Of a DNA stretch of 20,597 bases, positions 318 through 20,271 are shown in pieces; position 1 is the stretch's first letter, and each line of letters begins with the position of its first letter. A program made the position numbers and the translations under genes. The notes under the pieces are model-generated. The model had not been told where the DNA came from, did no database searches, and was given only the letters and a program-made list of their open reading frames with translations. The stretch comes from a virus (lineage: Duplodnaviria > Heunggongvirae > Uroviricota > Caudoviricetes): the IMG/VR virus record IMGVR_UViG_2534681697_000013. One strand, written 5' to 3'.

Positions 318-3298
<2,981 letters not shown>

Positions 3299-3374
3299 AA
3301 CCCTTGCTGCGTCTGGAATGTCGTTTTCCATGCTTTTGATGACCGTTCATCACCCTTCCAGTTTTTCGCGGTTT

Positions 3375-3428
3375 TGTGTATTGCAATGTGTATTGCAAAT
3401 TGGCGATCGGGATGGGTGTGTATTGCAA
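3375..3428 (+). repeat. Three direct copies of TGTGTATTGCAA (3375..3386, 3387..3398, 3417..3428); candidate integrase arm-type sites
   Basis: Exact 12-mers between the left junction and the int start; two more copies sit just inside the right junction. Confidence 0.55.
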
Positions 3429-3446
3429 ATCTCTTGAGGGCTTTTA

Positions 3447-4688
3447 ATGGCTATTGAAAACAAACTCAGTGACAAACTGTTAAAGAGTCTTGTCGGAAAA
3501 CGGCAGGACAAACAAAAAACAATAGCGGATGGGCGCGGGTTGTCTGTGCGTGTAAGCATGGTTGGGGGGATCAGCTTTGTTTTTTACTATCGTCTTGGTG
3601 GCAGGGAATCCCCTCCGGTATGGCTTACACTTGGTCGCTATCCTGACATGTCTCTTGCAACGGCCAGGCGCATGCGTGATCAGTGCCGTGAATGGCTGGC
3701 TGAAAATCTGGACCCCCGCAGGCAAATAAAACTTGCTGCCGAAAAAACTATGCAACCAGTGACCGTAAGGGATGCGCTGTTTTACTGGTACGACAATCAC
3801 GCCACAACAGCCAGAAAAGAGCATGAATATTTAATAAAACGATTTGAAAAGCATATCTTCCCCTATATCGGTGATATGGCTATAGAACAGTGCAAATTAC
3901 ACACATGGCTTACCGTCTTTGACAGGATCAAAAAAAATGCGCCTGTTATGTCTGGTGCAATTTTTCTTGATATCAAACAGGCGTTGCGTTTTTGTCGCGT
4001 CAGGCAATACATCGCGTGCGATCCCTTTGGAGATATTAACGTAAGTTATGTCGGGCGCTCATCCGGTATAAGGGATCGCGTTCTTAATATCAATGAAACC
4101 GCTGATGTATGGTCTTATGCTTACGGTAATAATTTGCTAACTCTGTCATCAATATATAACCGAAGAATAATGGTTATCTGCTTGGTGTTTGGTTGCCGAC
4201 AGCAGGAGGCGAGGCTATCCACCTGGGACGAATGGGATTTAAAAAACTGGGTATGGACAGTCCCAAAAGAGCACAGCAAAAACAAGGAGGCTATAGTAAG
4301 GCCTGTTCCTGACGGAATAAAACAATGGATCGTTAATCTTTACGCAGAAACAAAAAATCGCGGTTATGTTGTCGGTTGTGCTTTGCAAAGGGCGACAATA
4401 ACAGGGGCTGCAAACAGAATATGCAGGCGTCTTGGTCATGATACTAATGGCTTGTGGTGCATACATGATTTCAGGCGCACATTTTCCACTACGCTTAATG
4501 ATATGGGGGCGGATCCTTATATTGTCGAACTTCTTTTAGGTCATAAAGTGAAAGGGGTTGCTGGTGTTTACAATAAAAGCAGGCATATAAAGAAAAAACT
4601 TGAGGTGCTTAATATGTGGGTTAATTACCTTAATACGATAGCAGGATTTAACAACAACGTTATCGAGCTTAATAAAGAGGTGGTGTGA
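3447..4688 (+). CDS. int: Tyrosine recombinase / integrase (P4-type), 413 aa
   Basis: ORF with upstream GAGGG; C-terminal HDFRRTF...LLGHK...GVAGVYNKS is the tyrosine recombinase catalytic region. AT-richer than the flanking lambda genes. Confidence 0.92.
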   Translation: MAIENKLSDKLLKSLVGKRQDKQKTIADGRGLSVRVSMVGGISFVFYYRLGGRESPPVWLTLGRYPDMSLATARRMRDQCREWLAENLDPRRQIKLAAEKTMQPVTVRDALFYWYDNHATTARKEHEYLIKRFEKHIFPYIGDMAIEQCKLHTWLTVFDRIKKNAPVMSGAIFLDIKQALRFCRVRQYIACDPFGDINVSYVGRSSGIRDRVLNINETADVWSYAYGNNLLTLSSIYNRRIMVICLVFGCRQQEARLSTWDEWDLKNWVWTVPKEHSKNKEAIVRPVPDGIKQWIVNLYAETKNRGYVVGCALQRATITGAANRICRRLGHDTNGLWCIHDFRRTFSTTLNDMGADPYIVELLLGHKVKGVAGVYNKSRHIKKKLEVLNMWVNYLNTIAGFNNNVIELNKEVV

Positions 4689-4689
4689 T

Positions 4690-4947
4690 ATGGCAATTTA
4701 TTCTCTTGTTGATGAAAACGATTTGCGCACAATGAAGGACATTGATCGGTTCATTCGTGAAAAAGAGTGCATAGCACTTACCACGCTGGCAAACTCAACA
4801 CGCTGGAAAATGGAGCAGGCAGGTAAATTCCCGCGACGTATCAAGATCGGTGAACGTGCTGCAGGGTATCGACTTTCAGAGGTTCAGGCATGGATCCGTG
4901 GTGAGTGGCATCCTGGATGGAAACCTGGAAAAACAAAACAGCAATAA
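4690..4947 (+). CDS. alpA: AlpA-family wHTH regulator / excisionase-like protein, 85 aa
   Basis: Starts 2 nt after int stop; motif IALTTLANSTRWKMEQAGKFPRRIKIGERAAGYRLSEVQAWI matches the AlpA family. Confidence 0.8.
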   Translation: MAIYSLVDENDLRTMKDIDRFIREKECIALTTLANSTRWKMEQAGKFPRRIKIGERAAGYRLSEVQAWIRGEWHPGWKPGKTKQQ

Positions 4948-4960
4948 CCAGTAAATAATG

Positions 4961-4983
4961 CCCCTCATCACGAGGGGTTTTTT
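4961..4983 (+). terminator. Intrinsic terminator after alpA
   Basis: Stem CCCCTC / GAGGGG with loop ATCAC, followed by TTTTTT. Confidence 0.7.
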
Positions 4984-5003
4984 GTCTATAAGGTAAAAAC
5001 GCG

Positions 5004-5582
5004 ATGAATAAAAATATTGCCGTGACGGGCAAGGGGTACGCTCGTCCAGTGAAAAAATTCTGCGATATTCGTGATCTCGTCGTTCTGCGCTTTGATAGTG
5101 TGAACGTTCGTGTGGTGTATCTGAACGGCGATCCGTGGTTTGTTGCAAAAGATGTTTGTGCTGCGCTGGAACTAACCAATTCGCGTACGGCGTTGCAGAT
5201 GCTTGATGATGATGAAAAGGGAGTAAATTTAACTTACACCCCAGGAGGAAATCAGAATATGAGAATTATCTCTGAGTCAGGTTTCTACAAACTAATAGCC
5301 CGCAGCCGCAAAGCAACGACGCCTGGCACATTTGCTCATCGTTTCAGTAACTGGGTATTCAGAAATGTGATACCAGGTATCAGAAAAACGGGGACTTATG
5401 GTATCCCGTGGGGTGCATTACAGGATTTTTCCCGCCGTAAAGAGCAATATCAAATAAGTGCCAGCGAGAAGGGGAGGGAGCTACAGGCATGTAAGCGCAA
5501 AAAGCGTGAGCTGGAGGAAGAAGAAAAAACGCTGATACGTGAATATCAGCCTGAGTTTTACTTTGGTAACCGCATTCAGTGA
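5004..5582 (+). CDS. Bro-N domain protein (antirepressor-like), 192 aa
   Basis: N-terminus VVYLNGDPWFVAKDVCAALELTNSRTALQMLDDDEKG...GGNQNMRIISESGFYKLIARSRKA matches the Bro-N family; C-terminus is a charged coiled-coil-like tail. Confidence 0.78.
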   Translation: MNKNIAVTGKGYARPVKKFCDIRDLVVLRFDSVNVRVVYLNGDPWFVAKDVCAALELTNSRTALQMLDDDEKGVNLTYTPGGNQNMRIISESGFYKLIARSRKATTPGTFAHRFSNWVFRNVIPGIRKTGTYGIPWGALQDFSRRKEQYQISASEKGRELQACKRKKRELEEEEKTLIREYQPEFYFGNRIQ

Positions 5583-5591
5583 CAAAACAAA

Positions 5592-5612
5592 GGCGACCGC
5601 AAAAGGGTCGCC
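5592..5612. terminator. Hairpin between convergent genes (possible bidirectional terminator)
   Basis: Stem GGCGACC / GGTCGCC, loop GCAAAAG. T-rich tract only on the minus-strand side; none on the plus side. Confidence 0.5.
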
Positions 5613-5678
5613 AGTGGGAACAAGGGAAAACAAAAGCATCACCAACAATGCCACATTTGCGGCTGGTGGGCAATGTGA

Positions 5679-5858
5679 TCAGTCAGATTTGGTTCGTTCC
5701 AAGGTTTGCAACGAGAGCTTTTTCCTGTGCTCTTTAAGGAATTTCTCAAGAGCAAACGAACAAGGTGCGAATCTTTCTGATTCATGTTCATGCGCTATAT
5801 TTTTGCGTCGTCTCTTACGAGTTGGTGATGGTGTTTTGGTTGATTCTGTGTCGCTCAT
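5679..5858 (-). CDS. Small basic hypothetical protein, 59 aa (below the ORF-track size cutoff)
   Basis: Minus ATG at 5858 to TGA at 5679 encodes MSDTESTKTPSPTRKRRRKNIAHEHESERFAPCSFALEKFLKEHRKKLSLQTLERTKSD; weak AGGA upstream; directly downstream of the 101-aa minus ORF. Confidence 0.3.
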   Translation of the reverse strand: MSDTESTKTPSPTRKRRRKNIAHEHESERFAPCSFALEKFLKEHRKKLSLQTLERTKSD

Positions 5859-5915
5859 GGTGCTGTCCTGTAAAGCAATGCGCCTGCGTTCCTCAAACTA
5901 TGGCGCTGATATTGG

Positions 5916-6221
5916 CTATTCATGCTCTTTGACCTTGCGTCGCTGGAGTTCTTCACGCGCGACGGTGACGAGTTGCCCGATCTCCTCGGCTGCTTTGATG
6001 CCGATTTGTTCGACCTTAGCCAGGGCATCCAGTGACGACACAAGGGGATTTTCTCCGCTGCCTTCTGCTTGGCGGCGGGCTATTTCTCCGCGCATGGCGG
6101 TTACGATAAATCCGGCATTGCTTTCACCGTCCAGCTTAACGGATTCCATCCCTTGCATAACATCTAGTGGGACTCTGACAGTTGTCAGTTGTGATTTTGC
6201 GTTTTTGTTAGCCGTTGCCAT
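5916..6221 (-). CDS. Hypothetical protein, 101 aa; possible ribbon-helix-helix-type regulator
   Basis: AGGAG 8 nt upstream of ATG; N-terminal QLTTVRVPLDVMQGMESVK resembles a beta-strand plus helix start. Transcribed divergently from the operator region. Function is inferred. Confidence 0.5.
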   Translation of the reverse strand: MATANKNAKSQLTTVRVPLDVMQGMESVKLDGESNAGFIVTAMRGEIARRQAEGSGENPLVSSLDALAKVEQIGIKAAEEIGQLVTVAREELQRRKVKEHE

Positions 6222-6242
6222 TTCTGAAACTCCTAATCATCG

Positions 6243-6320
6243 GTGTGTTTCAGTATACACAAAAAAAGAAATACAAAAAGCCTTGACGTGTGTTTCATGC
6301 GCTCATAACATGAAACACAC
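6243..6320. promoter_or_regulatory. Divergent promoter region with operator-like repeats (candidate genetic switch)
   Basis: Plus strand: TTGACG (6283..6288), 17 bp, TAACAT (6306..6311). Perfect 12-bp inverted repeat GTGTGTTTCATG (6288..6299) / CATGAAACACAC (6309..6320), plus a third half-site GTGTGTTTCA at 6243..6252 over a minus-strand TATACT -10 candidate (6252..6257). Confidence 0.5.
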
Positions 6321-6348
6321 CGAAAGGATTGTTGAAATACAAAGAGCA

Positions 6349-6382
6349 ACGCCCCGCAGTGCTGGGAACACATACGGGGCGT
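6349..6382 (+). other. Stem-loop in the 5' leader of the rightward operon
   Basis: 8-bp stem ACGCCCCG / CGGGGCGT with an 18-nt loop, no T tract after it; lies between the promoter and the first ORF. Confidence 0.35.
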
Positions 6383-6411
6383 CTAACCAACAACGTAAAC
6401 TAGGAGCCGTT

Positions 6412-6609
6412 ATGGTTGCTGTAAATCATATACCACACCTTGTACACACACAAACGGCCTTTGTGTGGCGTTTTCTGGCACTGAGTGCCGGAGAATCTCA
6501 AATCATCCACGTAACCGCCTGGACGGAACGCGAAGCGCGTAGCCGTTGCCCGTCCGGTTGTGTTGCTGTATTCGCTGCAAAAATCCGCCAGGGAGTGAGT
6601 CATGCTTAA
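6412..6609 (+). CDS. Hypothetical small protein, 65 aa
   Basis: AGGAG 5 nt upstream of ATG 6412; stop overlaps the next ORF start at 6602. It is the C-terminal frame of the otherwise implausible track ORF 5539..6609. Confidence 0.4.
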   Translation: MVAVNHIPHLVHTQTAFVWRFLALSAGESQIIHVTAWTEREARSRCPSGCVAVFAAKIRQGVSHA

Positions 6610-6787
6610 AACCTTCCGTGTATTTGCCCGAGCTGTTAACCCAATAGGCCACACAATTGGTATCGCTCAGAATGTGAAGGCTGTTAATGTTCAGACGGCT
6701 ATTGCTGCGGTGAGAAGCGAATCATCAGAATATGGCTTATCACAAGTCATTATTTCAGCAGTGTATGAATTAAAAGAGGTGCATTAA
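6602..6787 (+). CDS. Hypothetical protein, 61 aa
   Basis: GGAGTGAG upstream of ATG; overlapping, translationally coupled operon layout. Confidence 0.45.
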   Translation: MLKTFRVFARAVNPIGHTIGIAQNVKAVNVQTAIAAVRSESSEYGLSQVIISAVYELKEVH

Positions 6788-6978
6788 TGCAGGAAATTAC
6801 ATTACACGAAGCCGCTGAACGTGCGCACCAGACAGAAATTATTTGCCGCCTTCTTGAGGTATACCCGAACAAAATTACAGATGCTGATATATCCGCACTG
6901 GCGAGCCTACTGGCGCGTCTTTCGGGAAGTGTCGCTAGTTTTTTGATTGAGGAAGAAAGTAAGCTGGTGGGGGATTAA
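6787..6978 (+). CDS. Hypothetical protein, 63 aa
   Basis: AGAGGTG upstream of ATG; start overlaps the preceding ORF end. Confidence 0.45.
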   Translation: MQEITLHEAAERAHQTEIICRLLEVYPNKITDADISALASLLARLSGSVASFLIEEESKLVGD

Positions 6979-7200
6979 ATGAATACAGAACGGGAAGTCT
7001 TTTTTAAATTGTTAGCATGTGCAGAAAGTTCATTAACTTTAAATAATTCAGCAAAAGCAATATTAAATATGTGGCTTGATTGCATAAATGACAATGAAGA
7101 TGCAAATATTGCTTATGGCCTGTTGTCACTTATTGATGAATCAGCAGAAAAACTCAATGACGCAATAAATAGTGCCCTGCTATCAAATAAGTCGAGTTAA
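6979..7200 (+). CDS. Hypothetical protein, 73 aa (AT-rich gene)
   Basis: Starts right after the previous stop with GGGGGA upstream; markedly lower GC than its neighbours. Confidence 0.5.
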   Translation: MNTEREVFFKLLACAESSLTLNNSAKAILNMWLDCINDNEDANIAYGLLSLIDESAEKLNDAINSALLSNKSS

Positions 7201-7217
7201 GTCGAGGAATAAATAAT

Positions 7218-7517
7218 ATGGAAATGAAAAATTCTGGCTTTATTGCCAGCGGCCCCGCTCGACCTGAATTTATGAACGGCGATATTTACCGCGATAAATA
7301 CGGCGGCACGGTAACGATTAAAGGCGTGGCAGAACGGCGCATCACTTACCGCCGTGAGGGGTATAGCTATGACTGCGTGATGCCTGTTTATCAGTTCCGG
7401 CGTGATTTTTCCCTGGTATATGCCGCACCCCGCAGTAAGCCCATCAGCAGGGAAAAAGCGTGGGGAAATATCCAGAAAATGAAAACCATGATTAACGGAT
7501 TCAGAGGTAAAAAATGA
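7218..7517 (+). CDS. Hypothetical protein, 99 aa
   Basis: GAGGAA upstream of ATG; stop overlaps the primase start. Confidence 0.55.
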   Translation: MEMKNSGFIASGPARPEFMNGDIYRDKYGGTVTIKGVAERRITYRREGYSYDCVMPVYQFRRDFSLVYAAPRSKPISREKAWGNIQKMKTMINGFRGKK

Positions 7518-9268
7518 AACTGGCACCGAACGTAAAACAGCAGTCACGCGGCATAAAACACAAAGGAACAGAAGTAATTATTTTTGCGGGTAGTGATGCC
7601 TGGGCACACGCGAAACAATGGCAGGAACATGATGCGCGTATGGCCGGAGATAATGAGCCTCCTGTGTGGCTTGGGGAGCAGCAGCTATCCGAACTGGATA
7701 ATCTGCAAATTGTGCCGGAAGGCCGAAAATCAGCACGCATATACAGGGCCGGATATCTTGCGCCTGTAATGATAAAGGCGATTGGTCAGAAGCTGGCGGC
7801 AGCAGGCGTACAGGATGCAAATTTTTATCCTGAGGGTATGCACGGCCAGGAGGTGCAGAACTGGCGCGAATATCTGGCCCGTGAACGCCAGAATCTTTCT
7901 GATGGTCTGGTCATTGAGCTTCCGGTAAAGCAAAAGGCGCAACTTTCGCAGATGGCGGACAGTGAGCGCGCGCAGTTGCTTGCCGATCGCTTTGATGGCG
8001 TTTGCGTACATCCTGAAAGTGAAATCGTTCACGTATGGCGCGGCGGGGTATGGTGTCCGGTCAGCACAATGGAACTTAGCCGCGAAATGGTGGCGATCTA
8101 TTCAGAGCACAGGGCCACTTTCAGCAAGCGCGTAATCAATAACGCCGTGGAAGCGTTAAAAGTTATTGCCGAACCAATGGGCGAGCCGTCTGGCGATTTG
8201 CTGCCGTTCGCCAATGGTGCGCTTGACCTGAAAACGGGGGAATTTTCCCCGCACACGCCGGAGAACTGGATCACCACGCACAACGGCATTGAGTACACGC
8301 CACCAGCACCAGGGGAGAACATCCGCGATAACGCGCCAAACTTTCATAAATGGCTTGAGCACGCAGCCGGAAAAGACCCGCGCAAGATGATGCGTATATG
8401 TGCCGCGCTGTACATGATTATGGCGAACCGGTACGACTGGCAGATGTTTATTGAGGCCACCGGAGACGGCGGGAGCGGTAAAAGTACATTCACACACATA
8501 GCCAGCCTTCTGGCAGGGAAACAGAACACGGTAAGCGCTGAAATGACATCGCTTGATGATGCTGGTGGACGTGCGCAGGTTGTCGGGAGTCGTCTTATCG
8601 TCCTGGCTGACCAGCCGAAATATACAGGCGAAGGAACGGGCATCAAGAAAATCACAGGCGGCGACCCCGTGGAAATTAACCCGAAATATGAAAAGCGTTT
8701 CACGGCGGTAATCAGGGCGGTGGTGCTGGCGACCAACAACAACCCGATGATATTCACCGAACGGGCCGGAGGTGTGGCACGTCGTCGCGTGATTTTCCGT
8801 TTCGACAATATCGTCAGTGAGGCCGAAAAAGACAGGGAGCTACCGGAAAAGATTGCGGCTGAAATCCCCGTTATTATCCGCCGATTGCTGGCGAACTTTA
8901 CCGACCCTGAGAAGGCACGGGCTTTACTACTGGAACAGCGTGACGGTGATGAAGCACTGGCAATAAAGCAACAGACGGATCCGGTTATTGAGTTTTGCCA
9001 GTTCCTGAATTTTCTGGAGGAAGCGCGCGGCCTGATGATGGGTGGCGGTGGTGATTCAGTGAAGTACACGACCAGGAACAGCCTTTACCGCGTCTATCTG
9101 GCGTTTATGGCATACGCGGGCAGGAGCAAACCGCTAAACGTGGCTGAGTTCAGCAAGGCCATGAAGCCAGCGGCGAAAGTTTACGGGCATGAATATATTA
9201 CGCGAAAAGTTAAGGGAGTAACGCAGACCAACGCAATTACAACAGACGATTGCGACGCGTTTTTATAA
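7514..9268 (+). CDS. Primase-helicase (P4 alpha-type), 584 aa
   Basis: Walker A GDGGSGKST and downstream helicase-like region; last gene of the small-ORF operon and followed directly by iterons. Confidence 0.88.
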   Translation: MKLAPNVKQQSRGIKHKGTEVIIFAGSDAWAHAKQWQEHDARMAGDNEPPVWLGEQQLSELDNLQIVPEGRKSARIYRAGYLAPVMIKAIGQKLAAAGVQDANFYPEGMHGQEVQNWREYLARERQNLSDGLVIELPVKQKAQLSQMADSERAQLLADRFDGVCVHPESEIVHVWRGGVWCPVSTMELSREMVAIYSEHRATFSKRVINNAVEALKVIAEPMGEPSGDLLPFANGALDLKTGEFSPHTPENWITTHNGIEYTPPAPGENIRDNAPNFHKWLEHAAGKDPRKMMRICAALYMIMANRYDWQMFIEATGDGGSGKSTFTHIASLLAGKQNTVSAEMTSLDDAGGRAQVVGSRLIVLADQPKYTGEGTGIKKITGGDPVEINPKYEKRFTAVIRAVVLATNNNPMIFTERAGGVARRRVIFRFDNIVSEAEKDRELPEKIAAEIPVIIRRLLANFTDPEKARALLLEQRDGDEALAIKQQTDPVIEFCQFLNFLEEARGLMMGGGGDSVKYTTRNSLYRVYLAFMAYAGRSKPLNVAEFSKAMKPAAKVYGHEYITRKVKGVTQTNAITTDDCDAFL

Positions 9269-9281
9269 TTTTTTGTAAAAG

Positions 9282-9503
9282 CCATCTACCCCATCTACCT
9301 GAACGAAATAAACGCATATTATTCAACATGATAAGTGGGTATAGGGCTAGGTAGAAGGCTAATAAAAGCTCTCTACCTCTTCTACCTGATTTTATCAGTT
9401 TCAGGTAGCAGGGTAGACGGCAGGTAGAGGAGTCAAAAAAGCTATCTACCCGCTGAAAGCGGCGCCATTACTGACATGATGAGCATTCGGGTAGATGGGT
9501 AGA
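9282..9503. repeat. Iteron cluster with AT-rich core; candidate replication origin
   Basis: (C)CATCTACC-type repeats on the plus strand at 9284, 9293, 9371, 9381, 9444 and inverted GGTAGA copies at 9350, 9404, 9412, 9423, 9490, 9498; terminal blocks CCATCTACCCCATCTACC and GGGTAGATGGGTAGAGG mirror each other; AT-rich stretch around 9300..9345. Confidence 0.6.
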
Positions 9504-9553
9504 GGGGGGGAGGCACAACTAAAAACTTTTTAAACGAGGGGGGGTGAAAATAA

Positions 9554-9868
9554 ATGCGCATACATAAAAATCACTTAACAAACATGCCAGCCGAAAACAT
9601 GAATCAGGGGCGACAAATGACCAAAATTCGCAGAGACAGAACACAGGCAAAATATAAAGCGTTAGACATGACAGAGCTTTCCTTAAAGGTGGCAATCAAA
9701 GCGATAGACCACCACACACGGGCAGGATACGCGAAGGAACATCCCGACCTGATAAGCGCATTCATGACCACAGCAGCGGCAAACTTTGCCACGCTGACAG
9801 AACGGGAGATTGCCGAAGCGGAACAGGTGACAACCATCAATGTTAAAACCGGAGAGCAGACAGCATGA
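9554..9868 (+). CDS. Hypothetical protein, 104 aa (true start may be a downstream Met)
   Basis: ORF after a G-rich Shine-Dalgarno-like tract; stop overlaps the SSB-like gene start (ATGA). Confidence 0.5.
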   Translation: MRIHKNHLTNMPAENMNQGRQMTKIRRDRTQAKYKALDMTELSLKVAIKAIDHHTRAGYAKEHPDLISAFMTTAAANFATLTEREIAEAEQVTTINVKTGEQTA

Positions 9869-10287
9869 CAGCACAGATAGCGGCTTACGGGCGGCTGGTG
9901 GCTGACCCGCAGTTAAAGACCACCAGCAAAGGGACACAAATGGCGATGGCGAGTATGGCGGTTCCCCTGCCGTGCAGCCAGGCAGATGACGGAACGGCGA
10001 CGATGTGGTTATCCGTCCTGGCGTTTGGCAGACAGGCCGACGCACTGGCAAAACACCACAAAGGCGAACTGGTGAGCGTGGCGGGTAACATGCAGGTAAG
10101 CCAGTGGACAGGCCAGAACGGCGAAACGCGGCGGGGCTGGCAGGTTATCGCAGACAGCGTAATCAGTGCGCGAACGGCGCGACCGGGCGGCAAAAAAGGC
10201 CAGCAGGGGCAGGCCACTGACGCACTGAACAGGGCAAAACAACAGTCGGGGAATGATGATCCGTACGGCGATAATATACCGTTTTAA
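9865..10287 (+). CDS. ssb: Single-stranded DNA-binding protein-like, 140 aa
   Basis: OB-fold-like core WLSVLAFGRQADALAKHHKGELVSVAGNMQVSQWTGQNGETRRGWQVIADSV, Gly/Gln-rich linker and a C-terminal ...DDPYGDNIPF tail resembling the SSB DDDIPF tip. Confidence 0.7.
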   Translation: MTAQIAAYGRLVADPQLKTTSKGTQMAMASMAVPLPCSQADDGTATMWLSVLAFGRQADALAKHHKGELVSVAGNMQVSQWTGQNGETRRGWQVIADSVISARTARPGGKKGQQGQATDALNRAKQQSGNDDPYGDNIPF

Positions 10288-10304
10288 ATTCTGCAAACAA
10301 AAAG

Positions 10305-10333
10305 ATGCCGGAAAAAAATAGATTTTCCGGCAT
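10305..10333. terminator. Strong hairpin after the SSB-like gene (putative terminator)
   Basis: Perfect 11-bp stem ATGCCGGAAAA / TTTTCCGGCAT with a 7-nt loop; no clear T tract after it, so terminator function is uncertain. Confidence 0.4.
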
Positions 10334-10498
10334 GCTACATAAATCCCGACCAAAGGAAGTAAATACATTAACACGAATTATCAGCACTGAAGTTGTTACG
10401 GCATATTTTATACAACATTGCACTTGGTTGCATGTGTTCGCATAGCAGACATCGGTAATAGAATATATTCACAATTATTTGTAATGAATGTAAAGAGG

Positions 10499-11545
10499 AT
10501 GAGTATGGTTGATTTATATTCGCCTACACAGCTTGTGCAGGTGGCTAATGCTGAAGATGTGCAAAAAAATTAAATGCGTTGTTTACCAGTTTGTTTTTCA
10601 CTCGCTCGGTAATGTTTGAATCGAGAGACATTATTCTTGATACGATCGACGATCCAAATATCCCGATCGCGGCGTTTTGCTCTCCTATGGTGGGCAGTAA
10701 AGTTTCACGAGATGAGGGATACGAATCAAAAACAATTCGTCCAGGTTATATGAAGCCGAAAAGCAGCATTGATCCAAATAAGTTAGCTGTGCAGCCCTGC
10801 TGGTGTGTCACCTGAGCAATACAATGCTTTTGGGGCGCGTAATATTAAAGTTAAACAGGCGATTGTAAATCAGGCTAAAGCTATTCGTGCACGTATTGAA
10901 TGGCTTGCTGTTCAGGCAATCACAACGGGGAAAAATATCATTGAGGGCGATGGTATTGAACGTTATGAGCTGGACTGGAATATAAAACCACAAAATATCA
11001 TCACTCAGTCTGGCGGTACTGAGTGGTCAGGTAAGGATAAAGAAACTTTTGATCCAAATGATGATATTGAGAGCTACGCAGAATTTAGTGAGGGCGTCAC
11101 TAATATCATCATTATGGGTGGTAATGTATGGAAGAAATACCGTTCATTCAGAGCGATAAAAGAGGCTTTGGATACCCGTCGTGGTTCTAATTCCGAACTG
11201 GAAACGGCCCTTAAAGACCTTGGTGATTCGGTGAGTTTTAAAGGGTATATGGGCGATGTTGCGATTGTTGTTTACAGCGGGCGTTATACCGACGAGGACG
11301 GAACAGAAAAACATTTCCTTGATCCTGATTTGATGGTGCTTGGCAATACGGCTCTTCAGGGGATTGTCGCCTATGGCGGTATTCAGGATCCGGAGCTAAT
11401 CCGAATGGGGCTGACTAAAGCCGAACTTGCACCGAAAAACTATATTGTGCCTGGTGATCCGGCTATTGAATATGTGCAGACACATTCAGCACCACAGCCA
11501 ATACCGGCCCGCATCAATCGTTTTGTTACCGTTCGCATTGGCTAA
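10499..11545 (+). pseudogene. Major capsid protein gene (lambda gpE-like), disrupted by two frameshifts
   Basis: Three consecutive frames each align with successive parts of gpE. First: MSMVDLYSPTQLVQVANAEDVQKN*, stopping at 10571. Second, to 10815: KKLNALFTSLFFTRSV...PGYMKPKSSIDPNKLAVQP. Third, 10805..11545: ...ITQSGGTEWSGKDKETFDPNDDIESY...DTRRGSNSELETALKDLG...GDVAIVVYSG.... The breaks sit in an A7 run (10563..10569) and a CCC run (10795..10797). Confidence 0.75.
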
Positions 11546-11554
11546 GGGGGAGCA

Positions 11555-11896
11555 ATGGCTACTCATTACACTGAACTCATGGCTGGCACTGAAGCACTGG
11601 TGACTACGCTGGGGATATTTTCAGCTAATAAAGGGGTAATTCCTGCATTTACGCCACTGATGCAGGAAGATGCAACAGGTGCACTGGTGGTATGGGATGG
11701 TTCGAGCGTAGGTAAAGCGGTTTATGTTTCCGCTGTACAAATCGACACCGCGAAAAAAACACAGGCTCAGGTCTATAAGACAGGTGTCTTAAATGTTGAT
11801 GCTCTGAACTGGCCTGAGTCTGTTAAAGAACTGTCAGTAAAGGTTGCAGCGTTTGTTGGCTCAGGTATTTCTGTTCAGCCGCTGGCTCGTGTGTAA
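11555..11896 (+). CDS. Head decoration protein (lambda gpD-like), 113 aa, apparently intact
   Basis: AAGGGGGA upstream of ATG. LVVWDGSSVGKAVYVSAV, VYKTGVLNVDALNWPE and AAFVGSGISV parallel the gpD motifs [34 protein letters not shown] and [10 protein letters not shown]. Confidence 0.72.
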   Translation: MATHYTELMAGTEALVTTLGIFSANKGVIPAFTPLMQEDATGALVVWDGSSVGKAVYVSAVQIDTAKKTQAQVYKTGVLNVDALNWPESVKELSVKVAAFVGSGISVQPLARV

Positions 11897-11907
11897 AGGG
11901 GGATACA

Positions 11908-12291
11908 ATGCAGAATGATTACAATGACCTTAAGCCAATTGCCGAAATGATGTACCCGAATCCAGCTGTAGAGGAATTAAAAGCTATCGCTGACAAAATG
12001 TGTTTAAGCGAGCGCCTTGTTGATATGAATCAGGTGATGGAAATTACAACCCTGAGTCGTCGTACACTGCTAAACCTTGAGGCTAGTGGAGAGTTCCCGG
12101 AGCGTGTGCAGGTTACGGAAGGGCGTAAGGCCTGGTATTTAAGTGAAGTGATCGACTGGATAAATAATATTCCTCGCGCTTCTGAATATTGCCGCGTACC
12201 TGTCCCAAAAAAGCCAGATGCGGCGCTATGCCTCAAGATTGAGCGTGTACGCCGCAATGCACGGGATGGTCGCTATAAGCTGATTGGTTGA
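11908..12291 (+). CDS. AlpA/MerR-type wHTH DNA-binding protein, 127 aa
   Basis: AGGGGGA upstream of ATG; motif MNQVMEITTLSRRTLLNLEASGEFPERVQVTEGRKAWYLSEVIDWI matches the AlpA family. Sits between the decoration gene and cos. Confidence 0.6.
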   Translation: MQNDYNDLKPIAEMMYPNPAVEELKAIADKMCLSERLVDMNQVMEITTLSRRTLLNLEASGEFPERVQVTEGRKAWYLSEVIDWINNIPRASEYCRVPVPKKPDAALCLKIERVRRNARDGRYKLIG

Positions 12292-12343
12292 TGAAATTAG
12301 GGCCCGCTCTGGCTGGCGGGTCCTTTCCGGTGATCCGGTAGGC

Positions 12344-12381
12344 TACGGGGCGGCGACCTCGCGGGTTTTCGCTATTTATGA
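12344..12381. other. cos site: lambda-type cosN (cohesive-end 12-mer GGGCGGCGACCT at 12348..12359)
   Basis: TACGGGGCGGCGACCTCGCGGGTTTTCGCTATTTATGA matches the lambda cosN region; downstream sequence up to the small terminase gene differs from lambda cosB. Confidence 0.75.
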
Positions 12382-12492
12382 GCCTTTTTCGGGTGCTGGT
12401 GGTGGTTTTGTTGTTCGCTCTATCTCTATGAATAAAAAGGAAAAGATAAAGCCAATACACCAACCTGAAACATTACTTAAGTGGGGATATTG

Positions 12493-13035
12493 ATGAAATC
12501 GCACCTGATGAACAAAAAAAACATGGCGCAAAGCTGCCGTGTAAGTGCGACAGCGTTCGACAAGTGGGGAGTGACTCCCGTTGAACGTAAAGGCCGCGAG
12601 GCGTTTTATGATGTTGCCAGCGTAATAGACAATCGGGTTAGCAATGCAATTAACCAGATTACAGACGACAAAGGCGAGATTGATGATGATGAACTCCTAC
12701 GAGTCAGGATCAGATTGCTGACAGCACAGGCAGAGGCGCAGGAGCTTAAAAACGAGCGCGAACGCGGCGACGTTATTGATACAGCGTTTTGTATATACGT
12801 GCTTTCAAAATTGGCGAGTCAGATTTCTTCAATCATGGACAGCCTGCCGCTTGCCATGACAAGGAAGTTTCCCGACATGAAGCCGTCTATGCTGGATGGA
12901 CTGAAAAAAGAAGTTATCAGAGCCTGTAACGCATGCGCAAAACTTGACGAAAACATACCGCTGATGCTGTCCGATTATCTGATGGAAACTGCCGGAAACG
13001 TACCGGATAAGTTGCAGCCGAATAAAGATAAGTAA
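12493..13035 (+). CDS. Terminase small subunit homologue (Nu1-like), about 180 aa; start could instead be 12481 (GTG) or 12508 (ATG)
   Basis: LLTAQAEAQELKNERERGDVIDTAFCIYVLSKLASQISSIMDSLPLAMTRKFPDMKPSMLDGLKKEVIRACNACAKLDENIPLMLSDYL parallels the Nu1 C-terminal half in this window; N-terminus MNKKNMAQ... parallels Nu1 MEVNKKQLA...; immediately downstream of cos. Confidence 0.8.
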   Translation: MKSHLMNKKNMAQSCRVSATAFDKWGVTPVERKGREAFYDVASVIDNRVSNAINQITDDKGEIDDDELLRVRIRLLTAQAEAQELKNERERGDVIDTAFCIYVLSKLASQISSIMDSLPLAMTRKFPDMKPSMLDGLKKEVIRACNACAKLDENIPLMLSDYLMETAGNVPDKLQPNKDK

Positions 13036-13046
13036 CGTAGTACGCT

Positions 13047-13328
13047 ATGACTGAATCCGAAATACTGCGATTAATCCGCCGTGCTTGTGGAATCAGCAAG
13101 CAGCATGACGAACAGGCCACGCAGCCGGACAGCGTGACCGCAGATAATTATGTGCGTGTAGTGGCTGAGGTGATGCGCCGTGACGGTATTGAGCTTAACG
13201 GCGTGGATATGCGCAACATACGAACAAGAGTCCTTGAGTTGCTGGCATATCGTCGCCGTTCTCAACAACGGAGGGAGAGCGCGAAAAATACTTACCAGTG
13301 GAAGAAGCCGGAACGATTGCGGCGGTAA
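13047..13328 (+). CDS. Hypothetical protein, 93 aa
   Basis: ORF 12 nt after the small terminase stop; no strong Shine-Dalgarno; function unknown. Confidence 0.45.
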   Translation: MTESEILRLIRRACGISKQHDEQATQPDSVTADNYVRVVAEVMRRDGIELNGVDMRNIRTRVLELLAYRRRSQQRRESAKNTYQWKKPERLRR

Positions 13329-13579
13329 CTTGCTGATATTCCCGATAACGCAAAATTGCGCTGGCTGACTTGTTGCATTGCAAAAAGTTAAGCAGGAAGG
13401 CACGGCCTGTAAGATGGGATGCAGTAAGTAGTTCAAGGCTACCTTGTGCTGGCACGCACAGTTAAGCCGTCGGTGCTGGATATCCCCCACTGGGGGAAAA
13501 GCTGGCTACATCCCTCACATCTGAGGACTGATAACGCGACATTGCGCTGGCTGGCAAAGTGCAAAATTGCACGATGGCC

Positions 13580-13726
13580 TAACCCATTGATTATTTCGAA
13601 AACCTGCAATGCAGGAAATCGGGGAAGTAAGCCTAAGCTATTGATTGTTTCGAAAACCCCCATTGGGGGATGTCGGGAAAGTAAGACTAACCCATTGATT
13701 CTTCCACAATCCTCAATTTGAGGAGG
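13580..13726. repeat. Tandem direct repeats of about 54 bp (2.5 copies), each with a short inverted repeat
   Basis: Units begin TAACCCATTGATTATTTCGAAAACC, TAAGCTATTGATTGTTTCGAAAACC and TAACCCATTGATTCTTCC; each contains a small palindrome (CTGCAATGCAG, CCCCCATTGGGGG, CCTCAATTTGAGG) and ends GG(G)AAGTAAG(C/A)C. Confidence 0.55.
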
Positions 13727-14041
13727 CCGGAACGTCTACATAGCTGCATCGCCGTAATGATGATTCAGCCCACCAGCCAAATCAGCACAGCAACGACAGA
13801 ATAGCCCGACACAGAAAAACCACGAATATGGGGTTTTTGTTATGACATGGTCATGATGACCACTCATACAAAACAGGTAAAGCCCACCAGCCTGATTAAA
13901 GGTTAACCGGAAAAAAGCCAGGTATCCAATCTCGATATGGGGATCCCTATATCGACATTAACGCCCACTAAAACTGTGCATATATGCATAGAAAAAGCAT
14001 CCACCAGCTTTATGACGGATGCCGCTCATCTTATAAATAAT

Positions 14042-14065
14042 CGTGTATTGCAGTGTGTATTGCGA
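14042..14065 (+). repeat. Two direct copies of (C/T)GTGTATTGC(A/G) (14042..14052, 14054..14065); candidate arm-type sites at the right end
   Basis: Same motif and orientation as the three copies upstream of int. Confidence 0.5.
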
Positions 14066-14137
14066 CTCCTTTAAACGATAGGTCTGAGCATTCGTAATGT
14101 ACTGTTTTTAAATTTTATTTTTTCCTGTCTTTTCATA

Positions 14138-14145
14138 AAGGCGAT
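14138..14145. other. Right junction core (attR-like) AAGGCGAT
   Basis: Direct repeat of 3239..3246; portal-like sequence resumes in frame immediately after. Confidence 0.6.
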
Positions 14146-14917
14146 GTATGCCGCCACCATTGAGAGTGAGCTGGATACGCAGTCAGCGATGGATTTTATT
14201 CTGGGCGCGAACAGTAAGGAGCAGCGGGACAAGCTGACCGGCTGGATTGGTGAAATTGCCGCGTATTACGCCGCAGCACCGGTCCGTCTGGGAGGCGCAA
14301 AAGTGCCGCACCTGATGCCGGGGGACTCACTGAACCTGCAGACGGCTCAGGACACGGATAACGGCTACTCCGTGTTTGAGCAGTCACTGTTGCGGTATAT
14401 CGCTGCCGGGCTGGGTGTCTCGTATGAGCAGCTTTCCCGGAATTACGCCCAGATGAGCTACTCCACGGCACGGGCCAGTGCGAACGAGTCGTGGGCGTAC
14501 TTTATGGGGCGGCGAAAATTCGTCGCATCCCGTCAGGCGAGCCAGATGTTTCTGTGCTGGCTGGAAGAGGCCATCGTTCGCCGCGTGGTGACGTTACCTT
14601 CAAAAGCGCGTTTCAGCTTTCAGGAAGCCCGCAGCGCCTGGGGGAACTGTGACTGGATAGGCTCCGGTCGTATGGCCATCGATGGTCTGAAAGAAGTACA
14701 GGAAGCGGTGATGCTGATAGAAGCCGGACTGAGTACCTACGAGAAAGAGTGCGCAAAACGCGGTGACGACTATCAGGAAATTTTTGCCCAGCAGGTCCGT
14801 GAAACGATGGAGCGCCGTGCAGCCGGTCTTAAACCGCCCGCCTGGGCGGCTGCGGCATTTGAATCCGGACTGCGACAATCAACAGAGGAGGAGAAGAGTG
14901 ACAGCAGAGCTGCGTAA
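14138..14917 (+). pseudogene. B: Portal protein gpB, C-terminal part (portal reading frame resumes at 14146)
   Basis: Translation (KA)MYAATIESELDTQSAMDFILGANSKEQRDKLTGWIGEIAAYY...GLRQSTEEEKSDSRAA* is the portal C-terminus; the last 20 nt overlap the GTG start of C. Confidence 0.9.
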
Positions 14918-16526: not shown

Positions 16527-17552
16527 ATGTCGATGTACACAACCGCCCAGCTGCTGGCGGCAAATGAGCAGAAATTTAAGTTTGATCCGCTGTTTCTGCG
16601 TCTCTTTTTCCGTGAGAGCTATCCCTTCACCACGGAGAAAGTCTATCTCTCACAAATTCCGGGACTGGTAAACATGGCGCTGTACGTTTCGCCGATTGTT
16701 TCCGGTGAGGTTATCCGTTCCCGTGGCGGATCCACCTCTGAATTTACACCGGGATATGTCAAGCCCAAGCATGAGGTGAATCCGCAGATGACCCTGCGTC
16801 GCCTGCCGGATGAAGATCCGCAGAATCTGGCGGACCCGGCTTACCGCCGCCGTCGCATCATCCTGCAGAACATGCGAGACGAAGAGCTGGCCATTGCTCA
16901 GGTCGAAGAGATGCAGGCCGTTTCTGCCGTGCTCAAGGGCAAATACACCATGACCGGTGAAGCCTTCGATCCGGTTGAGGTGGATATGGGCCGCAGTGCG
17001 GCGAACAACATCACGCAGTCCGGCGGCACGGAGTGGAGCAAGCGTGACAAGTCCACGTATGACCCGACCGACGATATCGAAGCCTACGCGCTGAACGCCA
17101 GCGGCGTGGTGAATATCATCGTGTTTGACCCGAAAGGCTGGGCGCTGTTCCGTTCCTTCAAAGCCGTCAGGGAGAAGCTGGATACCCGTCGCGGCTCTCA
17201 TTCCGAACTGGAGACAGCGGTAAAAGACCTGGGCAAAGCGGTGTCTTATAAGGGAATGTATGGCGATGTGGCCATCGTCGTGTATTCCGGACAGTACGTG
17301 GAAAACGGCGTCAAAAAGAACTTCCTGCCGGACAACACGATGGTGCTGGGTAACACTCATGCACGCGGTCTGCGCTCCTATGGCTGTATTCAGGATGCGG
17401 ATGCATTGAGTGAGGGTATTAATGCGTCTCCCCGTTATCCGAAAAACTGGAAGACATCCGGCGATCCGGCGCGAGAGTTCACCATGATTCAGTCAGCACC
17501 GCTGATGCTGCTGGCTGATCCTGATGAGTTCGTGGCCGTTCAACTGGCGTAA
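16527..17552 (+). CDS. E: Major capsid protein (lambda gpE-like), 341 aa
   Basis: MSMYTTAQLLAANEQKFKFDPLFLRLFFRESYPFTTEKVYLSQIPGLVNMALYVSPIVSG...DPDEFVAVQLA*; the track ORF starts at an upstream in-frame codon. Confidence 0.96.
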   Translation: MSMYTTAQLLAANEQKFKFDPLFLRLFFRESYPFTTEKVYLSQIPGLVNMALYVSPIVSGEVIRSRGGSTSEFTPGYVKPKHEVNPQMTLRRLPDEDPQNLADPAYRRRRIILQNMRDEELAIAQVEEMQAVSAVLKGKYTMTGEAFDPVEVDMGRSAANNITQSGGTEWSKRDKSTYDPTDDIEAYALNASGVVNIIVFDPKGWALFRSFKAVREKLDTRRGSHSELETAVKDLGKAVSYKGMYGDVAIVVYSGQYVENGVKKNFLPDNTMVLGNTHARGLRSYGCIQDADALSEGINASPRYPKNWKTSGDPAREFTMIQSAPLMLLADPDEFVAVQLA

Positions 17553-17554
17553 TC

Positions 17555-17578
17555 ATGGCCCTTCGGGGCCATTTTCTC
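17555..17578 (+). terminator. Hairpin with T-rich tail after E
   Basis: Stem ATGGCCC / GGGCCAT with loop TTCG, followed by TTTCTCTCT. Confidence 0.5.
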
Positions 17579-17593
17579 TCTGTGGAGGAGTCC

Positions 17594-17603
17594 ATGACGA
17601 AAG
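17594..17603 (+). pseudogene. FI: Remnant of the gpFI gene: start codon plus about 3 codons, then the IS element
   Basis: GGAGGAG followed by ATGACGAAAG at the position expected for FI; the reading frame runs straight into the IS end GTAAGCGC. Confidence 0.55.
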
Positions 17604-17634
17604 TAAGCGCTCCGAGAAGTACGTAGCGTAAGGA

Positions 17635-19098
17635 TTATTTTACAGACGAGAAGTTCCAGGGCAGCAGTTCATGCACTTGGTTCGACGGCCAGTCATTGAG
17701 CTTCTCGATCACTTCGCGCAACCAGTCCTCCGGCTCCACTTCGTTCTGTTTGCAGGTGACCAGCAGACTGTAGATGATCGCCGCACTTTCTCCTCCCTTG
17801 TCTGAGCCGAAAAAGAGATAATTTTTTCTTCCAACCGCCACCGATCGTAACGCGTTTTCACCGATGTTGTTGTCTATTTCCACCCAGCCGTCACGACAGA
17901 ACTCGTTCAGCGCATTCCAGTGATTCAGGATATAGTCGAACGCCTTCGCCATCTCCGCATGTTTCGACAGCGTTTCCCTCTGCAACTGTATCCAGTCGTA
18001 CAACGACTGCATCAACTGGACGCTTCTGGCTTTTCTGACTGCAAGCCGTTCCTCTGCCGGACTGCCACGTATCTCCGCTTCTATGTCGTATAACTCTGCT
18101 ATCCGTCTGAGCGCTTCCTGAGTCATTTCTGTCGGACGGCGCACATCCTCGTCATGGATTTTTCGGCGGGCGTGGGCCAGGCACCCGGCTTCCTTCACCC
18201 GGCCCGTTTCGTACAGTACGTTATAACCTGCATAGGCATCAGCCTGCAGTACGCCCTGATACTTTGCCAGGTGGAGCTGCGGATGTTCTCCTTTGCGATC
18301 TGCCGAATACGCGAACCAGACGGCTGCCGGCAGGGATGAACCCGCATTACGATCATCCCTGACGTATACCCACAGACGACCCGTTTTCGTCTTTCCGTTC
18401 CCCGGGGCCAGTACTTTCACCGGAGTGTCATCTGCGTGCACCTTTCCTGCCTCCAGAACATAGTCATTCAGCGCTATATACAGAGGACGGAGTTTGTCTG
18501 CCATTTCTGATACCCAGCGCACCATGGTATTACGGCTCAGCTCCACGACCTGTCGCGCGTATATTTCTGACTGGCGATATAAAGGGATATGTTCCATATA
18601 TTTGCTGACCAGGATCCGTGCAAGTAACCCTGCACTGGCATAACCGCGTTCGATCGGTTTAGGGGGAAGTGGTGCCTGAACGATGACATCACACCGGCTA
18701 CAGGCCAGTTTGGGACGTATGGTTTCGATAACTTTAAAGGCGGTATTAATGATATCCAGTTGCTCTGAGATTGTTTCCCCCATTTCTTTCAGAACACCTC
18801 CACAGGCCGGGCAACTGGTTTCAGCAGGCAGAAGGCGATGTGTCTCCCGGGGAAGTTCTGCCGGCAGCGGTTTTCGTGAAGATTTTCGTCCCGGGGATTC
18901 AGGCTTACTGGCGATCGGGTTTTCTGACGGGGGACTGGTGTCAGGTGAATCTGTGACTGACGATGCATCTTCCAGAAGATTTCTGGCTGTGTTCAGCCGG
19001 TTTTCCAGTTCCGACAGTCGTTTTTCTGCCTGTCGGATCTGATTTTCAAGCTTATGACGCTTTTTCTCTGAACTCTGGCCGAACAGCATACGACGCAA
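17635..19098 (-). CDS. tnpC: IS66-family transposase TnpC, 487 aa as an uninterrupted ORF
   Basis: ...[29 protein letters not shown]..., with Cys-rich CPACGG and CSRCD motifs. The expected N-terminal about 30 codons ([31 protein letters not shown]) lie in another frame upstream. Confidence 0.88.
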
Positions 19099-19600: not shown

Positions 19601-20271
19601 CGGATACCCCCTTTCATTTCGCGGATTAGCGCCCGTAACAGTTCCGGAGTGAGAGGGTCAAACAGTTTTACCACACCTGATTTAAGATGCAGCTCGCACC
19701 GTGGGACGTTTCCGGGAGCCCCCTCAGGGCGCTCATCATGCTTGTTACGCCAGAAGGGATTTGTAACTGGTCTGGTCGGCTCCGGCGTATCAGTCAGTGC
19801 CACCGGGACAGGCATGCATTCCTGTATGTCATCATCGCTCAGTAAGCCGTCCTCGTACTGGCTTTTCCATTTAAACAGCAGGTTATTATTGATATCGTGT
19901 TCTCTGGCGATCCGGGCAACAACAGCCCCAGGCTGTAACGCCTGCTTAGCCAGACGGACCTTAAATTCACGGCTATAGCTGGTTCGCCGTTCTTTTCGCC
20001 ATGAGCCTTCTCTGATTTGAGGCTCTGTTAATTCCTTCTTTCTGTTGGCATAAAGGATGGCGTCAAGTTGAGCGAATGAAACTGAATCGGGCAATGGCCA
20101 TGCGATACCGGATGCAAGAAATCGCTGAAAAAGCGTATGTATTGTGGAATGACTGAGACCCAGACGCTGAGCGATGGCCCGGATGGTCAGTTTATCTTCA
20201 AATCTTAAACGCAGGGCATCAGGCAAATAAGAACGGAAGCAGGGAATATCTTTTGTTGTCTGGGAATTCAT
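19597..20271 (-). CDS. tnpA: IS66-family TnpA-like protein (Orf1) with an N-terminal HTH-containing extension, 224 aa; true start uncertain
   Basis: ...RRTSYSREFKVRLAKQALQPGAVVARIAREHDINNNLLFKWKSQYEDG... is the IS66 Orf1 motif; the first about 90 residues (IRAIAQRLGLSHSTIHTLF...) look like an extra HTH domain. Confidence 0.75.
   Translation of the reverse strand: MNSQTTKDIPCFRSYLPDALRLRFEDKLTIRAIAQRLGLSHSTIHTLFQRFLASGIAWPLPDSVSFAQLDAILYANRKKELTEPQIREGSWRKERRTSYSREFKVRLAKQALQPGAVVARIAREHDINNNLLFKWKSQYEDGLLSDDDIQECMPVPVALTDTPEPTRPVTNPFWRNKHDERPEGAPGNVPRCELHLKSGVVKLFDPLTPELLRALIREMKGGIR

Follow-up and report, generated by a model that had tools for sequence, protein, structure and literature searches.

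A 20,597-nucleotide stretch of tailed-phage DNA (IMG/VR record IMGVR_UViG_2534681697_000013; hereafter the window) contains part of a lambda-like prophage whose portal gene is split by a satellite of about 10.9 kb, a phage-inducible chromosomal island (PICI). Within the late zone of this satellite lies a cos site with a lambda-type nicking site (cosN) and terminator (cosQ), a cosB region unlike that of lambda, and a gene for a complete small terminase (TerS) belonging to the satellite itself. On balance we favour reading this unit as a packaging-specificity cassette, in which cosN and cosQ are shared with the helper prophage and TerS, private to the satellite like the cosB that it reads, delivers the large terminase (TerL) of the helper. 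The cassette probably serves to direct the packaging motor of the helper to satellite DNA.

The left part of the cos site is essentially that of lambda. The cohesive end GGGCGGCGACCT lies at 12348..12359 (plus strand, like the other cos elements and terminase genes of the window), is the sole copy in the 20.6-kb window, and sits inside a core at 12317-12381 that is identical to lambda cosQ-cosN at 62 of 65 aligned positions. The cosQ heptamer GGGTCCT, at 12318..12324, occupies positions -30 to -24 from the cohesive end, which is the lambda spacing, and is identical in lambda, in the PICI EcCICFT073, in the helper of Escherichia coli EC93 and in all satellites aligned. A sequence-only reading of the window had already recognised a lambda-type cosN with its flanks at 12344..12381; the alignment confirmed this and extended the match to include cosQ. 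Among 50,697 phage records searched, 85 match only this lambda-like stretch of about 76 bp, and for lambdoid phages the match goes no further.

The helper shares this site. E. coli EC93 holds an identical, RefSeq-annotated copy of the locus, in which the satellite core 12317-12381 matches the helper's own cosN, the helper cos carries a full lambda cosB, and the helper Nu1, present there in full, differs from lambda Nu1 at one residue. The EC93 composite has two cos sites with a common cosQ and cosN and unrelated cosB regions, each followed by a small terminase of its own. In the window, the 3' end of the helper Nu1 gene occupies 1-317, at the window start, which rules out TerS being the small terminase gene of the helper; it is followed by helper gpA (292-2217), the first 278 residues of which show 99% identity to lambda gpA and match it without a difference at residues 1-150. 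The earlier proposal that the satellite nicking site would suit helper gpA agrees with these comparisons, as cosQ and cosN match those of the embedding prophage and its Nu1 and gpA are essentially lambda's.

Elsewhere a satellite differs from its helper in the cohesive end. A related satellite in E. coli MMC-J-0066 (locus L016; positions compared, ~20040-20060 and ~4930-4950), which lies within gene E (capsid) of its lambda-type helper prophage, has GGGCGTCAGGCG where that helper has GGGCGGCGACCT, with cosB and the nick-proximal bases unchanged. The variant says nothing either way on whether cosN tracks the helper, because the embedding helper has the standard cosN and because lambda TerL tolerates variation in bp 7-12 of the cohesive end (PMC4669245).

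To the right of the core, the satellite-specific cosB region (12382..12492) departs from lambda, as the sequence-only reading had stated for the roughly 110 bp that follow cosN. Lambda cosB could not be aligned to the sequence between 12382 and the start codon, the R3, R2 and R1 sequences were not found there, and the integration host factor (IHF) consensus WATCAANNNNTTR was not found between 12360 and 12492; the lambda layout of R3-I1(IHF)-R2-R1 is thus lacking. With 12348 counted as bp 1, the R3 position (bp 50-65 in lambda and 48-59 in phage N15) is taken up by a conserved block, TGGTGGTGGTTTTGTTGTT, at 12397..12415 (bp 50-68). This candidate TerS-binding site reads (GGT)3TTTGTTGTT, with (GGT)3 at bp 51-59. 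The block is unique in the window, in which no second copy that might serve as an analogue of rR2 was found within three mismatches. A second conserved block, AATACACCAACCTG, lies at 12454..12467 (bp 107-120), the position of lambda R2 as placed via the helper sequence; it is kept among E. coli satellites and is recognisable in an E. coli prophage with an N15-like TerS (L013). A 14-nt inverted match (86%) also connects 12403-12416, which covers GTTGTT in the R3-like block, with 12510-12523 in the first terS codons (MNKKNM). It recalls the remote inverted rR2 site of N15, but it includes the conserved NKK codons, and coding constraint could account for it.

The gene that follows, terS (12493..13035), encodes a full-length, 180-residue member of the Nu1/N15 gp1 family (RefSeq WP_000835282.1, 'terminase small subunit'). 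RefSeq places its start at the ATG at 12493; GTG at 12481, in the same frame, could serve instead. The TerS family phrog_57 matches residues 1-176 (5e-51), whereas the Pfam Phage_Nu1 match (3.3e-24) is restricted to residues 66-148. By BLASTP, residues 6-167 align with lambda Nu1 at 38% identity (E 2e-36), reaching the last residue of Nu1, and N15 gp1 is 48% identical (E 3e-57). The expectation of a diverged Nu1 homologue, similar in both halves, therefore holds, with the N-terminal half the weaker: similarity to lambda there is 35-43%, weak but real.

The N-terminal part contains a winged helix-turn-helix DNA-binding domain, as indicated by the phrog_57 match from residue 1 and by a family profile that finds lambda TerS(1-98) (PDB 6HN7 chain B, E 0.005); a single-sequence search of the PDB returned only noise. 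The AlphaFold 2 model, used for its secondary-structure pattern only (predicted local distance difference test score (pLDDT) of 64), has the order beta-alpha-alpha-hairpin-alpha with the wing at residues 31-40, and its top local Foldseek fold matches are MerR-type winged helix-turn-helix domains, although these are non-significant. The remainder of the protein, a central self-association core and a C-terminal tail, is homologous to Nu1 100-181, with 51% identity at Nu1 100-140 and 44% at 141-181, and the tail is predicted from this homology to bind TerL. The gene differs from that of a lambda-like small terminase in its neighbourhood: it lies downstream of cos with no TerL gene adjoining it, and the only TerL gene nearby is that of the helper.

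The DNA-binding domain and the R3-position block are conserved together. The TGGTGGTGGTTTTGTTGTT block is kept in all satellites with this TerS, including an Enterobacteriaceae clade with only about 60% identity in TerS, while the stretch between cosN and the block has diverged among them. Over the same range, identity in the DNA-binding domain is 93-98% between E. coli satellite alleles and about 80% to the Enterobacteriaceae clade, compared with 80-88% and 61-66% for the core and 49-80% and 24-37% for the predicted TerL-binding tail. The gene is under purifying selection, with pairwise dN/dS (omega) of 0.10-0.24 among E. coli alleles at dS 0.4-0.8. Leaving out one near-identical pair, omega in the tail is 0.14-0.30, and dS there reaches 1.4, against 0.12-0.25 in the DNA-binding domain of the same pairs. 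The combination of high dS and low omega in the tail points to the exchange of tail segments that are diverged yet functional.

These measurements bear on the idea that cos and terS are an inert leftover of phage late-gene capture with no role in packaging the satellite. Helper late genes do get captured by PICIs, including those embedded in their helpers (HE-PICIs), and the capsid-like gene of the satellite is frameshifted in the window copy. Against such an origin, the module and an intact terS open reading frame are conserved across satellites of E. coli, Citrobacter and Enterobacter, the dN/dS values are those of a gene under constraint even at the dS given above, the cosB block is conserved, and no phage source is closer than 48%. 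We regard inert capture as very improbable.

In the 22 contexts examined, the cassette occurs only in satellites. A TerL gene was adjacent to satellite terS in none of the 22, and all of them have the same order of a capsid-like gene, a decoration-like gene, a small helix-turn-helix or hypothetical gene, a gap of about 200 bp and TerS. None of the 50,697 phage genomes encodes a TerS more than 60% identical to that of the satellite, the best being N15 gp1. Many homologues, 58-99% identical and all named 'terminase small subunit', occur in E. coli, Shigella, Citrobacter and Enterobacter. The view that the recognition region and small terminase are specific to the element is upheld by this distribution in one sense, as cosB and TerS are satellite-specific, and has to be qualified in another, as the module does have a phage relative, the N15/Monarch-type cos-TerS module, from which it has diverged. 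At a threshold of at least 80% coverage, 763 of 5,426 complete E. coli genomes (~14%, including O157:H7) have terS and 97 (~2%) have rppA/B, the genes of the characterised PICI packaging proteins, which makes the TerS cassette about eight times as frequent; the search could not count RppC, which has diverged too far.

The comparison with N15 suggests where the module came from and how it might work. N15 gp1, the closest phage TerS, is 56-61% identical to the satellite protein in the DNA-binding domain, and N15 cosB is likewise short, without an IHF consensus, and has a G/T-triplet R3 element at bp ~48-60, mapped as GAGGTT GTTGTT (Feiss et al. 2015, PMC4669245). Where the satellite has (GGT)3, N15 has (GTT)3 in the same register, and the satellite then has a second GTTGTT; the proposed recognition-helix residues are VSATAFDKW in the satellite and ISVQAFDKW in N15. 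N15 also differs in having its own cohesive end rather than lambda's and a C-terminal tail 80% identical to that of lambda, against 44% for the satellite TerS, and the N15 and Monarch-like modules belong to phages whereas satellite terS has no adjoining TerL gene. The L013 prophage encodes an N15-like TerS beside TerL that is 46% identical to the satellite TerS, and its cosB is recognisably homologous to satellite cosB (12382..12492), so the satellite module is descended from modules of N15/Monarch-type phages and did not arise from scratch. In this prophage, from E. coli N25, an IS1 insertion separates cos from the N15-like terS (L013 1705-2402).

An experimental precedent for a foreign cosB and DNA-binding domain working with lambda TerL is the viable hybrid lambda-N15hy4, which combines N15 cosB and a TerS with the N15 DNA-binding end with the TerL of lambda; terminases of lambda or 21 specificity are unable to package cosB-N15 DNA (PMC4669245). 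The kinship with N15 could instead mean that the cassette mimics phages with N15/Monarch-like terminases, which would be the true helpers, the lambda-type prophage serving merely as an integration target. Such a reading draws on the closest relatives being N15 gp1 and the L013 TerS with its homologous cosB, and on the promiscuity of the N15-specific terminase towards lambda DNA (PMC4669245). It conflicts with the (GGT)3 of the R3-position block, which is (GTT)3 in N15 and L013, with the differing residues of the proposed recognition helix, with a cohesive end that is lambda's and not N15's, and with the report that HE-PICIs are mobilised by the prophage they sit in (PMC10111431); moreover, a TerS of its own would be needless to the satellite if the TerS of its helper already recognised satellite cosB. 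We consider a helper other than the embedding prophage improbable.

The sequence-only reading had described the module as the PICI-like strategy for cos phages. Its first half stands, the element being a PICI-type satellite with integrase, AlpA, Bro, primase, single-stranded DNA-binding protein (SSB) and a late zone, but the characterised strategy of cos PICIs is based on Rpp, which is not a full TerS and needs that of the helper (PMC6739421). Rpps are proteins of 144-153 residues that lack the C-terminal TerL-binding region of TerS, have C-terminal dimerisation helices of their own, and form a heterocomplex with helper TerS that they strictly need (Fillol-Salom et al. 2019, PMC6739421; Murialdo & Feiss 2022, PMC9026076).

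The likeness to Rpp-type PICIs is nevertheless extensive. Both are Gram-negative PICIs with a lambda-type cosQ and cosN, a non-lambda cosB and then a winged helix-turn-helix gene of TerS ancestry, and in both the helper terminase is presumed to be redirected to satellite DNA. As expected of an Rpp gene, terS is PICI-encoded and directly downstream of a PICI cos with lambda-type cosN and cosQ and a non-phage cosB. EcCICFT073 has the same late order of gpE-like gene, gpD-like gene, small protein, cos, the gene in question and a gene for a 93-residue protein, with a 144-residue protein at the position expected for RppA (c1503), between cos and the 93-residue gene. Between pepT/roxA and phoQ, the O157:H7 PICI has TerS where CFT073 has rppA, and TerS and rppA are thus alternative cassettes in one kind of element. 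The O157:H7 island is a chromosomal PICI of E. coli O157:H7 Gim1-1 (L010 2793-13229), located between roxA and phoQ.

The proteins themselves are distinct. At 180 residues TerS is longer than any of the Rpps, and the Nu1-type core and C-terminal tail are found in TerS only. RppA and satellite TerS gave no BLASTP alignment at E<=100, RppC was not retrieved from the PDB by the TerS family profile at E<=1, and RppA matches phrog_57 only through its winged helix-turn-helix (residues 7-47), consistent with a remote ancestry of that domain shared with TerS. The cosB sequences also differ, that of EcCICFT073 being different again from lambda's. Membership of TerS in the Rpp family was ruled out by length, homology and domain content.

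Similarity of position could nonetheless reflect similarity of action, with TerS working as an Rpp-like adaptor that co-assembles with helper Nu1 through its core or DNA-binding domain, so that a mixed complex reads satellite cosB and engages TerL through the helper Nu1 tail; helper TerS would then be required. In addition to the shared genomic position, such a role would fit the view that Rpp is TerS-derived, its winged helix-turn-helix matching the same family (PMC6739421). It would also fit the 51% identity of the core to Nu1 100-140 and a tail that has diverged from lambda to the degree seen in the 21-type tail, which is incompatible. Yet purifying selection on a full-length tail would be unexpected if that tail were unused, and the Nu1 segment in which Rpp-escape mutations fall (Y50, E65, D68-R70) lies largely in alignment gaps of the satellite TerS, so any interface must differ. 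We judge the adaptor role unlikely, though it is the rival to which we give most weight. Selection on the full-length tail favours direct TerL binding, and the divergence of the tail leaves room for mixed complexes with helper Nu1.

Among other satellites, an analogy to the favoured cassette is offered by pac-type Staphylococcus aureus pathogenicity islands (SaPIs). In the SaPI strategy (Ubeda et al. 2007, so far as it is summarised in PMC6739421), the satellite encodes a TerS homologue, TerS-S, that recognises satellite DNA; as in the element described here, it is presumed to pair with helper TerL. SaPIs differ in packaging by the headful, whereas specificity at a cos site must be combined with a TerL-compatible cosN and cosQ, and in the protein family, which is unrelated; no Ppi-like partner was identified for the satellite. 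By analogy, the logic of the cassette is closer to the SaPI TerS strategy than to Rpp.

Our model of a packaging-specificity cassette would run as follows. The satellite would retain cosN, for nicking, and cosQ, for termination, both read by the helper large terminase, and would have swapped cosB, which is read by the small terminase, for one of its own while encoding the matching TerS. After helper induction, the satellite would excise from the portal gene and replicate. With its N15-like winged helix-turn-helix domain, TerS would bind the R3-position block (GGT)3TTTGTTGTT, and its Nu1-homologous core and C-terminal tail would bring the lambda-type TerL, gpA, to cosN. Satellite concatemers would then be cut and packaged, four copies amounting to about 43.6 kb, which fits a lambda-sized head; multimer packaging has been proposed for EcCICFT073, and 4 x 10.9 kb would be consistent with it. 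Helper Nu1 would be unable to use satellite cosB, and competition for gpA would reduce packaging of the helper. In this scheme we infer DNA binding at the cosB block, the interaction with TerL, packaging and interference from sequence.

Several lines of evidence support the packaging-specificity cassette: a cosQ and cosN near-identical to those of the embedding helper, whose Nu1 and gpA are lambda's; a TerS that is full-length, unlike RppA; conservation of the DNA-binding domain and the R3-position block over the same range while the flanks have diverged; purifying selection on terS; the lack of an adjacent TerL gene in the 22 contexts together with the lack of a phage TerS above 60% identity; the viability of lambda-N15hy4 as a precedent; and the occupation of the rppA position in PICIs of otherwise similar make-up, among them one at the chromosomal locus of EcCICFT073.

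Other observations weigh against it. Identity of the tail to lambda Nu1 141-181 is 44% for the window allele and 29-34% for other alleles, close to the 32% of the 21-type TerS. Lambda/21 hybrid genetics have established that 21-type TerS does not function with lambda gpA, and homology of a tail this diverged is no proof of compatibility with lambda gpA. In two composites whose helpers both have a lambda-type Nu1, the two satellite tails share only 56% identity, and tail type showed no association with helper type in these two composites, which are too few to conclude from. The satellite GTTGTT hexamer lies 9 bp farther from cosN than that of N15, and the spacing of R3 is critical in lambda (PMC4669245). 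A Foldseek search of the AlphaFold 2 model against the PDB gave no significant match, at the moderate confidence that its pLDDT implies. Finally, the capsid-like gene is frameshifted, so the satellite copy in the window may be decaying.

A broader version of the cassette model can be put forward more tentatively, with somewhat less than even confidence. In a large class of enterobacterial PICIs, a complete satellite TerS of the Nu1 type would pair directly with helper TerL, independently of helper TerS; the DNA-binding domain and cosB would be held fixed while the tail is exchanged by recombination to fit different helpers, and such proteins would be a plausible intermediate between phage TerS and Rpp.

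Homologues of terS in Gram-negative PICIs have been noted before (PMC6092414), and the small terminase is a core PICI marker in SatelliteFinder. Recent summaries give only four packaging strategies, namely borrowed helper cos, SaPI TerS with Ppi, Rpp and the capsid-forming PICIs (cf-PICIs), and our literature search found no paper describing or testing a Nu1-type satellite TerS together with a cosN of lambda type and a cosB of its own. The textbook explanation for the packaging of Gram-negative cos PICIs is Rpp, yet rppA/B is far rarer in complete E. coli genomes than the TerS cassette, and the interest of the cassette lies mainly in this commonness and in the different dependence on helper genes that it predicts. 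If TerS works as a true small terminase together with the TerL of the helper, the majority of E. coli PICIs with this architecture would hijack their helpers by subunit swap and not by an adaptor, which would alter predictions for helper range, for phage escape (through TerL rather than TerS mutations) and for the engineering of PICI-based delivery vehicles. The cassette would also offer lambda terminase biology a natural system in which a conserved DNA-binding domain and cosB pair is joined to diverse predicted TerL-binding tails, and in which a cosB that looks simple and R3-only-like is paired with a lambda cosN.

The element that carries the cassette (3252..14150, plus strand) is, by its sequence organisation, an HE-PICI as described by Tommasini, Mageeney & Williams (2023, PMC10111431), who list portal gene B among the target genes. 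Its boundaries follow from the split portal gene and from a 13-bp core repeat, AAGGCGAT(T/G)TATG, at 3239-3251 and 14138-14150. In the helper, whose gene order in the window is the Nu1 3' end, gpA, W and the split portal gene, the N-terminal portal fragment (2417..3250, plus strand; RefSeq 'portal, missing C-terminus') is 60% identical to residues 5-275 of a 530-residue portal, and the C-terminal fragment (14132..14917, plus strand) is 62% identical to residues 270-523. A doubled GTGTATTGCA motif lies at 3376-3396 and 14043-14063, and GTGTATTGCAnTGTGTATTGC, present at both satellite ends, fits the att-region motif of PMC10111431. The element shares with HE-PICIs this doubling and the zone order of integration, Bro, replication and late genes. 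Satellite TerS is not discussed in that paper, whose model element 11capE lacks terS and is presumed to use the helper cos machinery (PMC10111431).

Gene content is that of a PICI, with a length in the range of ~10-15 kb, genes that mostly point the same way, integrase, AlpA, primase and replication genes and a late zone, and without lysis or tail genes. The integrase (3447-4688), AlpA (4690-4947), a Bro-N protein (5004-5582), a D5-type primase (7514-9268) and SSB (9865-10287) precede the late zone, of which the genes named below are on the plus strand. There, a gpE-like capsid gene (10505-11545; Pfam Phage_cap_E, 1.7e-31) is followed by a gpD-like decoration gene (11555-11896; Pfam HDPD, 4.5e-15) and, directly upstream of cos, by a gene for a 127-residue AlpA-like helix-turn-helix protein (11908..12291; Pfam Phage_AlpA, 7.6e-9; phrog_2790, 1e-49) that is conserved in the module. 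Downstream of TerS is the gene for a conserved 93-residue protein of unassigned function (13047..13328; phrog_1561, 1e-55), which likewise follows rppA in EcCICFT073. Compared with EC93, in which it is intact, the gpE-like gene of the window has a -1 shift in an A-run (~10563) and a +1 shift (~10794) that leave about 230 nt out of frame, reflecting either decay of the window copy or homopolymer sequencing errors.

Two further islands are of note. In E. coli strain 135 (L014 1440-2102), about 660 bp without an annotated TerS or Rpp gene separate the 93-residue gene from one for a 137-residue protein, and a cos-like match there is opposite in orientation to the module. At L022 6001-12537, a TerS-type PICI is followed directly by a second set of integrase, AlpA and replication genes, and the arrangement resembles two satellites in tandem.

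In the right arm of the window satellite, between the 93-residue gene and attR, 13577-13738 consists of three tandem 54-nt units, each of which has WATCAANNNNTTR, the IHF consensus, as an exact minus-strand match, followed by a short GC-rich hairpin; these three are the only exact matches to WATCAANNNNTTR in the 20.6-kb window. Rfam gave no family match anywhere in the window, this array included. The units could be IHF arm sites of attP, or repeats resembling repetitive IHF-binding palindromic (RIP) elements or bacterial interspersed mosaic elements (BIMEs). In EC93, the helper major capsid gene E (L002 16816-17841, corresponding to ~16615-17640 in the window) has an internal stop and is a pseudogene in the RefSeq annotation, while the satellite embedded in this helper carries a gpE-like gene; the helper may be defective.

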